This document shows positions 15,424 to 50,296 of a DNA stretch of 64,000 nt, in pieces. Source of the DNA: an uncultured Caulobacterales bacterium (GTDB lineage Bacteria > Pseudomonadota > Alphaproteobacteria > Caulobacterales > Maricaulaceae); contig CALFWV010000042.1 of NCBI GenBank assembly GCA_937927825.1, forward strand, positions 9,980-73,979, in the 5' to 3' direction. A program made the translations under genes and the position numbers. Each line of letters starts with the position of its first letter. The first letter of the stretch is position 1. The notes under the pieces are model-generated. The model worked only from the letters and a program-made list of their open reading frames with translations. It searched no databases and had not been told where the DNA came from.

Positions 15424-15442
15424 ATTATTGATAAACAATAAT
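15424..15442. promoter_or_regulatory. Inverted-repeat operator, probably for the YozG-like regulator
   Basis: ATTATTG-ATAAA-CAATAAT, perfect 7-bp arms 3 nt from the DUF2975 start codon. Confidence 0.6.
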
Positions 15443-46585: not shown

Positions 46586-46656
46586 GGCCGCATTGGCCGC
46601 GCGGCTTTAACGTTTTCTCTCTTCCCGCGCGGGCCTGCCCGCGCTAACGCGGGGTT

Positions 46657-48129
46657 ATGGAAAATACGTTTGGATTTCTCTCTTTGCTTCCGCCGATTTT
46701 GGCGATTGGATTGGCGCTTTGGTCGCGGCAGGTCTTTTTGGCGCTCTTCTTGGGTATTGCCTCCGGGTTTTTGATCCTCGGGGGCGGGAATCCGCTGGAG
46801 GGGGCAATGCTGACGATGGGCGGGTTTGTCGCCGTCTTCGAGAGCAATTATAATACAGAGATTATCATTTTCACCCTGCTGATTGGCGCGCTTATCGCGC
46901 TCATCCAACGCGCGGGCGGGGTTGAGGGATTTGTCAATCGCGTGCTGGACTGGCTGCAACGTAAAGCCGCCAGCGCGGACGGAAAAGGCCAGCGCAAGCG
47001 GGTAGAGCTCCTCGCTGTCTTGACCGGCGTTCTGATATTTGTGGAGAGCAATATTTCCACGCTGACGGTTGGTACACTCTATCGGCCCGTCACGGATGAG
47101 CTGAAAATTCCACGCGAGAAACTGGCCTATATTGCGGACAGCACCTGCGCACCGATTTGCATTCTCATTCCGCTGAATGCGTGGGGCGCTTATATTTTGG
47201 GCCTCTTGGGGGAACAAAATATGGAAAGCCCGATGTCAACGCTGGTTGGGGCCGTGGCGTTGAACTTCTATCCGATGCTGGCCATTGCTATCGTTGTCTT
47301 CGTGATTTTATCAGGCCGGGATGTCGGCGAAATGAAACGCGCGGAAGCCCGCGCGACCGAGCATGGCAAAATCCTTCGTGATGGCGCCGTGCCAATGATT
47401 GCAGGTGAAATCACGATGATGAACGCCAAAGCAGGCGCGACGCCAAAAGCGCGGAATATGATATTCCCGCTCGCGGCGCTCATCATTTTGATGCCTATTT
47501 TCATGCTCTACACAGGATGGAGTTCAGACGGTGACAATGGTTTATTCCAACTCGCCGACCGCGCCTCCGGATCGAAATCCGTGCTCTATTCTGTTTGCGG
47601 CGCAATCCTTGTCGCGATGGTTTTGAACAAATCCCAGGGTATCATGGGCGTGCGGGAAATGGTCGATGTCGTGCTGAAAGGGATGTCAGGCATGTTGCCG
47701 CTCGCGCTGCTTATGGTCTTCGCCTTTGCCCTTGGAAATCTATGCGGCGATTTGGGCACAGGGCAATATGTGGCGGAGGTTGCCAAACCATTCCTCTCGC
47801 CCGCACTTGTCCCTGCGCTAATTTTCCTCATCAGCGGGTTCATTGCCTTCTCCACAGGGACCAGTTGGGGAACCTTTGCCATCATGATTGCCATTGCAGT
47901 TCCGCTCGCGCAAGGCCTTGATACGAATGTGACCTTAGCGGTTGCGGCGGCGCTGGGCGGCGGCGTGTTCGGGGACCATTGCAGCCCGACATCCGATACA
48001 TCCATCATCACATCTATGGCGACCGCAAGTGACCATATCGACCATGTCAGAACGCAGCTCCCCTATGCCCTCATCGGCGGGGCCATCACGACGGGGCTTT
48101 ATTTAATTCTGGGAGTCATTGGTGTTTAA
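46657..48129 (+). CDS. Na+/H+ antiporter NhaC family / amino-acid transporter
   Basis: SLLPPILAIGLAL, REKLAYIADST, AFSTGTSWGTFAIM, GGVFGDHCSPTSDTSI..ATASDHIDHVRTQLPYA. Confidence 0.9.
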   Translation: MENTFGFLSLLPPILAIGLALWSRQVFLALFLGIASGFLILGGGNPLEGAMLTMGGFVAVFESNYNTEIIIFTLLIGALIALIQRAGGVEGFVNRVLDWLQRKAASADGKGQRKRVELLAVLTGVLIFVESNISTLTVGTLYRPVTDELKIPREKLAYIADSTCAPICILIPLNAWGAYILGLLGEQNMESPMSTLVGAVALNFYPMLAIAIVVFVILSGRDVGEMKRAEARATEHGKILRDGAVPMIAGEITMMNAKAGATPKARNMIFPLAALIILMPIFMLYTGWSSDGDNGLFQLADRASGSKSVLYSVCGAILVAMVLNKSQGIMGVREMVDVVLKGMSGMLPLALLMVFAFALGNLCGDLGTGQYVAEVAKPFLSPALVPALIFLISGFIAFSTGTSWGTFAIMIAIAVPLAQGLDTNVTLAVAAALGGGVFGDHCSPTSDTSIITSMATASDHIDHVRTQLPYALIGGAITTGLYLILGVIGV

Positions 48130-49387
48130 ATATCTTGGGATTTTAGCCGTAGGTTTAAGCGCCTGCACCGCGGCTGCCGGCCCCGCCGCGCAAAACCATC
48201 TCGGCATTGAATATGCCGTGGCAGAACGCTGGCAATTACCCGTGCTCAACACAGATTGGAAACGCGCCGCGCCCTTTGACGCGATGGGTCCCGCCTGTCC
48301 GCAAGACGGGCAAGCCGTTATGAAAGAGGACTGCCTGTTCCTGAATGTCTTCACGCCCGGCGATACGAAAAATGCACCTGTGTTGGTTTGGTTTCACGGC
48401 GGCGGATTTCGCGCCGGGTCGGGCGGAGACGGACCCAAGACCTTTGTAAATGACGGCGTGGTGGTGGTCACATTTAATTACCGCTTGGGAAAGCTCGGCT
48501 TTCACGATTGGGCAGGATGGGATGAAGGTAACCCGCGTAATTTCGGGCAAGCTGATATGGTGGCCGCGCTGGATTGGGTTCAAGCCAACATTGCCCAATT
48601 TGGCGGCGACCCAAAAAATGTGACCCTCGCAGGACATAGCGCCGGTGGCATGGGAGTGCAGTTGATGCTGACCGACACACGCGCCAAGGGGAAATTTGCG
48701 CGGGCATGGACGCATGCAGGATATGGTTCATGGCCTTTCCCCAAAGCCTTTAACCCCAGTCCTGAAATCCGCGCCCGCATTCGCTACCGCGCATTGGAAA
48801 CGGCGCGCCCGGCAGACCAAATCGTCGCGCAGACGCCATTTTTCCACCTTCCCTATATTGACGCACCGCACTTATCTGAACAACCCAACAGGCTCTGGGC
48901 GAAAGGATATGTCGCAGACGTCCCCATTGTCACGGGGTGGAACTCCTATGACGGTGCGGGGACCTTGGGCGGCGCTGGTTTTTCGGTCGAAGACTTCATA
49001 AAGCGCATAGACAGCGACGAGATTCGCGCCGCCTATGGAGCTGATTTCGCCGTGTCGGACACCCAAGCAGCCCAACGGATTTTCGGCGATATGCGCTATG
49101 GCGTGTCGAGCCTCGAGCTCGCTGACCAAGGAAATGGCTGGAGTTTCTATTACGACGACCGGCAAGCGGGCGCGCCGGGTGCCTATCACGGACAGCAATA
49201 TGATAGTTTATTTGGGGGCGCAGAGTCTGATTTTCGGGAGGCCCTTTCCCAATTTATTCAAACCGGAAACCCGGGTTGGGACCTTGATGAAATCGGGCTA
49301 TTTTCGCCCGAATTGACATCCCAATCCAACGCCCTGTCTGATGCAAAGCGAGCCGCCCTGATATCCGCTTTAGAGGCAATAAAATGA
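48119..49387 (+). CDS. Type-B carboxylesterase, secreted
   Basis: EDCLFLNVFTP, VWFHGGGF, FNYRLGKLGF, FGGDPKNVTLAGHSAGG (catalytic Ser), AYHG. Confidence 0.9.
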   Translation: MVFKYLGILAVGLSACTAAAGPAAQNHLGIEYAVAERWQLPVLNTDWKRAAPFDAMGPACPQDGQAVMKEDCLFLNVFTPGDTKNAPVLVWFHGGGFRAGSGGDGPKTFVNDGVVVVTFNYRLGKLGFHDWAGWDEGNPRNFGQADMVAALDWVQANIAQFGGDPKNVTLAGHSAGGMGVQLMLTDTRAKGKFARAWTHAGYGSWPFPKAFNPSPEIRARIRYRALETARPADQIVAQTPFFHLPYIDAPHLSEQPNRLWAKGYVADVPIVTGWNSYDGAGTLGGAGFSVEDFIKRIDSDEIRAAYGADFAVSDTQAAQRIFGDMRYGVSSLELADQGNGWSFYYDDRQAGAPGAYHGQQYDSLFGGAESDFREALSQFIQTGNPGWDLDEIGLFSPELTSQSNALSDAKRAALISALEAIK

Positions 49388-49818
49388 TGAAGTCCTGTCT
49401 TACGTCGAGCGTTCTATTTCTTTCGACCTGCGCCGCAGACGCGCAAGACGTCAGACCCAATGTAGCGGGCGAGTGGGCGAATGAGCGCGGCTCCTCTGTC
49501 ACATTTGTGGAAACGGACGGCGTATTATCCGGTTATTATAACACGCGGCTCGGCAATCCTGACCCTGCGTCGCGCTTTCCTTTGACCGGATTTATTGAAG
49601 GGGACCAAGTGACATTTACGGTCAATTTCAAGGGCTATGGCAGCCTCACAAGTTGGACCGGGCAAATTAGTGAGGATGAGGATGGGGCTTATATCCGGAC
49701 GCTTTGGCATCTCACACGCGATGTTTTGGATGCAGAAGAAGAGGCGGATTTGTGGTCATCCATCATTGCGGGATCTGCCAATTTTCGCCCCGTGGAACCC
49801 GCTATAGACGCTAAGTGA
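49384..49818 (+). CDS. Avidin/streptavidin family protein, secreted
   Basis: GEWANERGS, LSGYYNT, FPLTG, VTFTVNF, SLTSWTGQ, IRTLWHL, WSSIIAGSANF follow the avidin eight-strand barrel pattern; ATGA overlap with the esterase. Confidence 0.9.
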   Translation: MMKSCLTSSVLFLSTCAADAQDVRPNVAGEWANERGSSVTFVETDGVLSGYYNTRLGNPDPASRFPLTGFIEGDQVTFTVNFKGYGSLTSWTGQISEDEDGAYIRTLWHLTRDVLDAEEEADLWSSIIAGSANFRPVEPAIDAK

Positions 49819-50296
49819 AATCCTTAACCGCCCTCGGCGCGACATAGCGCGCCACAAACACACCCACTATCATGCTGGCGATGACGGCAATCAGCGAGGC
49901 TTTTGTGATATCGACAAAGGCATAAAGACCCGCATCGATGGACGTCGGTATGGCAGAAAACAAAGCGGTAAAAAAATTATCTGTTGTGTTTTGATAGGCA
50001 GAAAATGTGCCCGTTTTTAAATTCGCCAAAAAGGCCGGCAGCGGGATAATCGTAACGGCTGTACAAAATCCGGCCATCGCTCCGCGCGGGATACTGTCCT
50101 TTTTCAAATGAGTGACCGTCCAAAATATGAAACTGATAAGGGATGTACTGACGGCGATTAGAACCGCAATCTTCAAAACATCAGCGAGTAGATCCGCTTC
50201 GCCGCCCAAGACCTGCAGGGTTATCGCCATACAAAATGTTGTCGCGAAAAGCGTCATGAGTATTGTAAATAAGCGGCGTTGAGAAAGCGTTTTCAT
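49811..50296 (-). CDS. Hypothetical membrane protein (about 4 TM)
   Basis: Four long hydrophobic segments; fills the gap downstream of dnaJ. Confidence 0.7.
   Translation of the reverse strand: MKTLSQRRLFTILMTLFATTFCMAITLQVLGGEADLLADVLKIAVLIAVSTSLISFIFWTVTHLKKDSIPRGAMAGFCTAVTIIPLPAFLANLKTGTFSAYQNTTDNFFTALFSAIPTSIDAGLYAFVDITKASLIAVIASMIVGVFVARYVAPRAVKDFT

Follow-up and report, generated by a model that had tools for sequence, protein, structure and literature searches.

The avidin-family gene and its biotin pocket

The stretch of DNA analysed here (64,000 nucleotides of contig CALFWV010000042.1 from an uncultured Caulobacterales bacterium, assembly GCA_937927825.1; hereafter the window) carries at positions 49384–49818 of the forward strand a gene for an avidin homolog, which lies directly behind the genes for a putative transporter and an esterase. 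Its open reading frame (ORF) comprises 144 codons plus the stop codon, and a GAGG ribosome-binding site is located 7 nt 5′ of the ATG, within the 3′ end of the esterase gene. A reading of the letters alone (the sequence-only reading) had proposed an avidin homolog at this position and had suggested a structure-based alignment as a check. The family profile, the alignments to sequences of the PDB and a structure model all agree with this assignment: The Pfam profile Avidin (PF01382) matches residues 26–134 with an E-value of 2.4e-18 and 67 bits against a cut-off of 24, thereby covering profile positions 1–115 of 116. The AlphaFold2 (AF2) model, built on 52 relatives, shows eight strands at a mean predicted local distance difference test (pLDDT) score of 86. 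A Foldseek search of this model against the PDB yielded streptavidin, avidin, xenavidin, AVR4, shwanavidin, wilavidin and rhizavidin, all with a probability of 1.00, and the target-normalised template-modelling score (TMt) of the top 50 matches ranges from 0.70 to 0.87. The ORF at 49384–49818 is thus a genuine avidin-family gene; its product is not streptavidin itself, since the NCBIfam streptavidin model scores 36 bits against a cut-off of 300.

We then compared the protein with the characteristic features of PF01382. The eight-stranded antiparallel β-barrel, the Asn/Ser/Tyr triad together with the Ser/Thr contacts, and the aromatic cage are all found, except that the Asp or Asn of the last strand, which accepts a hydrogen bond from a ureido N–H of biotin, is replaced by Ala132. 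The motif in question, G130-S131-A132-N133-F134, is encoded at 49771–49785 on the forward strand. When the window avidin was aligned by phmmer to the PDB sequences of streptavidin, xenavidin and avidin, the segment D-L-W-S-S-I-I-A-G-S-A-N-F-R-P-V fell on streptavidin N-A-W-K-S-T-L-V-G-H-D-T-F-T-K-V with zero gaps, which places W124 on W120, G130 on G126, S131 on H127, Ala132 on Asp128, N133 on T129 and F134 on F130. A MAFFT alignment with 136 family representatives reproduced these columns. Because the register between W124 and F134 is free of gaps relative to streptavidin W120–F130, GSANF lies on GHDTF and Ala132 occupies the position of Asp128, which corresponds to Asn118 in avidin, Asp107 in bradavidin and N117 in xenavidin. 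Where these four proteins carry Asp or Asn, the window avidin has Ala, just as the sequence-only reading had concluded from its comparison of GSANF with GHDTF. The codon of Ala132 is GCC (49777–49779), and one base change to GAC would restore Asp. That reading had also named the way in which it might fail, namely a register shift that moves Asn133 into the pocket. Such a shift is unlikely, because the flanking W124, G130 and F134 are fixed, whereas position 133 accommodates many residues among the clade relatives described below (N, K, T, V, Q, H, S, E or D); the gap-free alignment speaks against it as well.

The remaining contacts to biotin are retained. This applies to the triad that binds the ureido oxygen (N33, S37 and Y52 for streptavidin N23, S27 and Y43), to the Ser/Thr contacts (T54, S87 and T89 for S45, S88 and T90) and to the tryptophans (W91, W108 and W124 for W92, W108 and W120). 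In avidin numbering, the sequence-only reading had listed the equivalents of N12, S16, Y33, T35, T77, W97 and the inter-subunit W110 as kept and had assigned a streptavidin-like Trp to the position of avidin F79. It had further pointed out that avidin W70 is Phe. Indeed, F82 of the window avidin is found at the position of streptavidin W79/avidin W70; this is, however, not unusual, since Phe is the majority state of the family in this column (76 Phe and 53 Trp among the 136 representatives). Judged by these alignments, Ala132 takes the place of the Asp/Asn ureido contact in an otherwise intact pocket. The tetrameric proteins streptavidin, chicken avidin, bradavidin and xenavidin share with the window avidin the fold, the Asn/Ser/Tyr triad, the aromatic cage and the inter-subunit Trp; relative to these four, the window avidin has shorter 4–5 and 5–6 loops and, in addition, a lipobox-like sequence.

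This sequence, LSTC, closes the predicted export signal at 49384–49431 (forward strand), with Cys16 encoded at 49429–49431. The N-terminus reads ...FLSTC-AADAQD, and signal peptidase I could alternatively cut after A-D-A (residue 20). Most relatives have LSAC, LTAC, LLAC or SSC at the site of Cys16, and a few are devoid of the Cys; both a hydrophobic N-terminus and a Cys in L-[ST]-[AST]-C are shared by most of 120 relatives. The usual lipobox follows the pattern [LVI][ASTVI][GAS]C, and the Thr at position −1 of L-S-T-C in the window lies outside this consensus. For this reason, we rate lipid anchoring of the window avidin via Cys16 as probable and no higher. It also decides how far an earlier statement holds, according to which the mature chain contains no Cys: It is correct if signal peptidase I cuts after ADA and incorrect if Cys16 is the lipidated first residue.

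A natural Ser/Ala clade and the biotin metabolism of its hosts

The sequence-only reading had treated the window avidin as a lone oddity. Instead, it belongs to a large natural clade: A large protein search retrieved 181 relatives, with Litorimonas species and Hellea balneolensis as named sources, and position 132 is Ala or Ser in all of them and never Asp. Near relatives end in motifs such as GSANF, GNATF and GPAVF, more distant ones in GASDF, GASEF and GASTF. A tree of 88 sequences, which contains 82 clade rows, was rooted on avidins of the Asp type. According to this tree, the clade started out with Ser, and Ala characterises one derived subclade that includes the window, apart from one or two reversals; Asp occurs at position 132 in 0 of the 82 clade rows. 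By comparison, W31, N33, S37, Y52, T54, F82, S87, T89, W91, W108, L110, W124, G130 and F134 show no variation across 52 relatives with identities down to 55%. Since every other residue of the pocket is invariant in these relatives, the pocket is strongly constrained and the Asp-less state itself is maintained. In the wider family, the column of Asp128 contains 88 Asp, 23 Ser, 9 Asn, 6 Ala, 3 Thr, 3 Gly and 1 Gln (136 representatives of clusters at 50% identity), and most of the Ser and Ala representatives are the nearest relatives of the clade. Asp or Asn at this position is therefore typical of the avidin family and not universal. The supplement of Laitinen et al. 2021 already names the protein from Hellea balneolensis among the putative avidins; the survey itself contains nothing on the D128 position, on transporters or on auxotrophy.

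To place the protein in its metabolic context, we analyzed the biotin genes of its host. The genome to which the window belongs is a 220-contig assembly with a completeness of 92%. It encodes the biotin ligase BirA (118.8 bits; cut-off 83), whereas bioB was not found (best score 33 bits; cut-off 225), bioA was not found above its cut-off (228 bits against 405), and neither bioD nor BioY gave any match. Three relatives with complete genomes (G034, G016 and G027) show the same pattern. By its gene content, the host is thus predicted to use biotin without being able to make it, that is, to be a biotin auxotroph.

We extended the comparison to 61 genomes of the family, the window's own included. 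An avidin of the Ser/Ala clade is present in 16 of the 61 and bioB above the cut-off in 33, and the two overlap in a single genome (G011): 15 genomes have the avidin without bioB, 1 has both, 32 have bioB without the avidin and 13 have neither. BioY was detected in 3 genomes, all of which possess bioB and none of which possesses the avidin. In an inner clade of 25 genomes defined by a DnaK tree, the corresponding numbers are 15, 1, 6 and 3. The same tree contains five sister contrasts in which genomes with the avidin and without bioB stand against genomes with bioB and without the avidin, and none in which this relation is reversed: G022 versus G058, G037 versus G030 and G047, G053 and G036 versus G015, the trio of genus g26 versus G004, and G034 versus G051.

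A second kind of avidin was encountered in the family. G032 and G049 (genus g10) encode an unrelated Asp-type avidin (GSDIF or GSDVF, ~30% identical) with Phe at the position of W120, whose gene (L010:3939–4388 and L012) adjoins a gene for a pyridoxal phosphate-dependent decarboxylase and is not near an NhaC-family gene. Both genomes are without bioB.

Probable biotin capture and the competing explanations

The start of the avidin gene overlaps the stop codon of the esterase gene by 4 nt (ATGA, 49384–49387). This gene (48119–49387, forward strand, 422 residues) encodes a type-B carboxylesterase (Pfam COesterase, 190.6 bits) with an LSAC lipobox and a GHSAG nucleophile motif; the nearest solved relative, a p-nitrobenzyl esterase, aligns with residues 37–276. 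The enzyme is ~70–100 residues shorter than typical type-B carboxylesterases, which it matches over the first 280 residues only, and carries GHSAG in place of the usual GESAG. The start of the esterase gene, in turn, is overlapped by 11 nt by a gene (46657–48129, forward strand, 490 residues) for an NhaC-family (Tet(35)-like) secondary transporter: The NCBIfam models Tet(35) and NhaC score 167 and 48 bits, both far below their cut-offs, and Pfam Na_H_antiporter is matched by orthologues of the transporter. Because the three genes overlap, their co-transcription is well supported. The order transporter–(esterase)–avidin recurs in Litorimonas sp. WD9-15, in Hellea, on metagenome contigs and in 11 of the 16 family genomes that carry the avidin; wherever the genes are linked, they lie at one and the same syntenic site beside dnaJ–dnaK. 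The protein from Hellea balneolensis (WP_084169061.1) is a member of the same clade with ~60% identity and is encoded at the same locus adjoining the NhaC-family gene and dnaJ; it differs from the window avidin in that it has Ser (GASDF) and in that the transporter gene overlaps the avidin gene directly, without an esterase gene in between. Accordingly, the cassette between transporter and dnaJ varies: It consists of the avidin gene alone in several genomes, of esterase plus avidin in the window, and of the esterase plus a 24-residue avidin remnant in G042, while G051 and G004 have neither gene and a reverse-strand ORF in the gap.

The remnant in G042 (L028:2964–3035, in the interval between esterase and dnaJ) corresponds to the C-terminal third of the avidin and is 62% identical to its Hellea counterpart (E 1e-5). 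The esterase gene directly 5′ of it is intact, and the avidin was lost by deletion in a genome that is also without bioB. Conversely, an obligatory pairing of transporter and avidin is ruled out by genus g26, in which the avidin gene lies behind mgtE, and by G025, in which it lies behind rbfA. At the g26 loci (L011:2441–4371, L014:3887–6103 and L025:2508–4372) the avidin gene follows mgtE directly and is itself followed, on the opposite strand, by AhpC/redoxin-like, DsbD and SapC genes.

We interpret the window avidin as a cell-bound lipoprotein by which a biotin auxotroph captures and stores biotin and which releases it more easily, and we assign this interpretation a probability of roughly 0.6. 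In the proposed mechanism, an exported and probably lipid-anchored eight-stranded avidin barrel would bind biotin. Of the two residues that accept hydrogen bonds from the ureido nitrogens, the one at Asp128/Asn118 has been replaced, by Ser in the ancestor of the clade and by Ala in the subclade of the window. Located in the envelope, the protein would capture and hold scarce biotin for a host that possesses BirA and is without BioB, BioA, BioD and BioY. The loss of the contact would raise the off-rate, which would allow an importer in the inner membrane to take over the biotin; the co-transcribed NhaC-family permease may be this importer. Capture on behalf of the cell, rather than starvation of competitors, is most likely because the avidin is found almost only in relatives that are unable to make biotin.

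A precedent for this role is provided by rhizavidin: Vargas-Lagunas et al. reported that its knockout in the auxotroph Rhizobium etli CFN42 speeds the decay of growth on subculture and that biotin rescues this phenotype (PMC8914248). Rhizavidin was consequently proposed to capture and conserve biotin (PMC8914248), and the work is cited in that sense in PMC9666465. Like the protein studied here, rhizavidin is a secreted bacterial avidin of a biotin-auxotrophic alphaproteobacterium, and its physiological logic matches the distribution relative to bioB. There are also differences: The Foldseek match of the window avidin to the biotin complex of rhizavidin has ~25% identity, and rhizavidin keeps Asp at the position of D128. 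Moreover, rhizavidin co-occurs with bioMNY in Rhizobium, whereas BioY is absent from the genome of the window, and neither a lipobox nor an overlap with a transporter gene is reported for rhizavidin. While a storage role of an avidin in an auxotroph is hence already known in kind from this knockout, the natural lineage with Ser or Ala at position 128, the way in which it alternates almost exclusively with bioB in one family, and the combination of a lipobox with a link to an NhaC-family gene in the absence of BioY are new.

How much affinity would be lost can be estimated from engineered proteins. The streptavidin variants D128A (PDB 1SWS/1SWT) and S45A/D128A (1MEP) carry Ala at the same position as the window avidin and are, because this Ala is shared, among its best streptavidin matches; they are, however, laboratory proteins with ~30% identity to it. 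For D128A, the passage of PMC4888747 that quotes Hyre et al. gives a loss of 4.4 kcal/mol as determined by isothermal titration calorimetry. This corresponds to about a thousand-fold and would, by our arithmetic, shift a dissociation constant (Kd) of ~1e-14 M to the order of 1e-11 M. Since the loss amounts to only about a thousand-fold, very tight binding would remain, and the term reversible, which the sequence-only reading had used, is to be understood as relative. Biotin in seawater ranges from below 1.2 pM to 700 pM (PMC9561691). If the window avidin behaved like D128A, it would still bind biotin at these picomolar levels and would release it far faster. The value of 4.4 kcal/mol is not simply transferable, because a natural protein has had time for compensating changes; Arg35 at the position of L25 and the shorter loops are possible changes of this kind in the window avidin. 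With this in mind, a weaker and more reversible binding can fairly be inferred, whereas the altered specificity that had been suggested as an alternative finds no positive support, every other biotin contact being invariant in the 52 relatives.

A number of points weigh against the interpretation as a capture and storage protein. Biotin binding and the lowered affinity are properties that we infer for the clade, the Ser type included, and the Thr at position −1 of the window's lipobox is unusual. Three genomes of the inner clade have neither the avidin nor bioB, although two of them are only 75% and 83% complete. A sign test on independent pairs gave p-values of 0.125–0.25 and was not significant; because there are only three or four informative pairs, the alternation of avidin and bioB is consistent and not statistically established. 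Furthermore, avidins in general are not associated with the loss of bioB across 401 Alphaproteobacteria: An avidin of whatever type is encoded by 10 of these genomes, and 4 of the 9 outside the clade have bioB, compared to a background of 38%. A general rule that equates avidin with bioB loss is thus unsupported, and the alternation is specific to the Ser/Ala clade. With respect to the locus, the positions behind mgtE and rbfA separate the avidin from the transporter, an orthologue of the transporter is retained in bioB-positive genomes that are without the avidin, and no BioR-type operator (TTATMKATAA) was found upstream of the operon; the only match with one mismatch near the operon overlaps the start codon of the transporter gene, and the matches numbered 30 in total versus 19 expected by chance.

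A further explanation is that avidin and NhaC-family permease, joined by the esterase at those loci that have it, constitute a dedicated biotin uptake system in which the weakened avidin serves as binding protein, which we regard as rather doubtful. Stop and start codons overlap, and the transporter–avidin order is found in the 11 of 16 genomes mentioned above as well as on metagenome contigs, but all linked cases lie at the one dnaJ–dnaK site, so that this order is perhaps merely inherited. The avidin also occurs at the other sites, and orthologues of the permease persist without it where bioB is present. In favour of the system, BioY is missing in 58 of the 61 family genomes, including every avidin-bearing one; against it, several genomes without bioB possess neither the permease nor BioY, which means that another biotin importer must exist. 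Members of the NhaC family are not known to work with a binding protein, and the literature we searched contained no paper that ties avidins to NhaC-type transporters. In its most explicit form, in which the lipid-anchored avidin passes picomolar biotin to the co-transcribed transporter in auxotrophs without BioY and the esterase frees biotin from esters in some lineages, the proposal is similarly tentative. If true, this would be a route of biotin uptake not described before, in which the avidin fold has a new physiological task and the transporter founds a new family of importers for biotin.

Alternatively, the protein could be a classical avidin that sequesters biotin in order to starve competitors or grazers, the defensive function that is commonly put forward for avidins of bacteria, with the change to Ser or Ala being neutral. 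We consider this unlikely, even though a survey of bacterial avidins favours defence or competition (PMC8033661), D128A streptavidin still binds extremely tightly and the pocket is otherwise intact. Producers without biotin synthesis would starve too, and the phenotype of the rhizavidin knockout is one of biotin conservation and not of sequestration. The conserved lipobox speaks for a protein that is bound to the cell and not released, and Asp was never regained in the 82 clade rows although one base change would suffice. A defensive role thus fits poorly, because the producers need external biotin, the lipobox points to a cell-bound protein and Asp is persistently avoided.

Finally, the overlap of the esterase and avidin genes in the window and in several relatives, together with the fact that the single lost contact is the one to the ureido N–H, could suggest that the ligand is a biotin conjugate, ester or analogue with a changed ureido side that is processed by the exported esterase; this is likewise improbable, as many clade loci are devoid of the esterase (the avidin gene of Hellea and others comes immediately after that of the transporter), the presence of the esterase does not track Ala versus Ser (the esterase loci of G045, G027 and G054 carry Ser), every contact that is made to the ureido oxygen, to the sulfur or to the carboxylate end is invariant, and desthiobiotin would be useless to a cell without bioB. 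Because of the Ser at these three esterase loci, we rejected the presence of the esterase as the cause of the difference between Ala and Ser.

As a probable capture and storage protein, the window avidin bears on the question of what bacterial avidins are for, to which the main survey answers with defence and the single knockout study with biotin storage. Its clade represents a natural experiment: Among close relatives within a single family of marine bacteria that live in association with seaweed, avidin and biotin synthase take each other's place, and the clade avidin has given up the very contact whose loss is known to speed the release of biotin. The idea of capture and release is therefore directly testable in culturable strains. 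That the clade tracks the loss of biotin synthesis makes physiology a more informative point than the view of a single protein. In addition, the ~180 natural sequences with Ser or Ala at position 128, whose compact barrel is free of Cys outside the signal peptide, are candidate biotin binders that would combine tight binding with release, and the NhaC-family transporter is a candidate importer for auxotrophs without BioY.

Further features of the window

The sole exact BioR box in the window, TTATTGATAA at 15425–15434, is located ~60 nt before a Ham1/RdgB-like gene, which is followed by a HemN-like (hemW-like) gene of the radical S-adenosylmethionine type. As these genes have no link to biotin, this is probably a chance match. 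A scan for promoters and terminators gave nothing decisive. Downstream of the operon, a predicted membrane protein of 161 residues is encoded on the reverse strand at 49811–50296, convergent with the avidin gene and overlapping its last 8 bases; it has no match in Pfam or NCBIfam, and weak homologues are found at the same site before dnaJ in G037, G022 and G004. Upstream, the 71-nt gap at 46586–46656 between an M3 peptidase gene and the transporter gene is filled by a GC-rich inverted repeat, GCCGCATTGGCCGCGCGGC followed by CCCGCGCGGGCCTGCCCGCGC, which may terminate the M3 peptidase gene or regulate the transporter gene.

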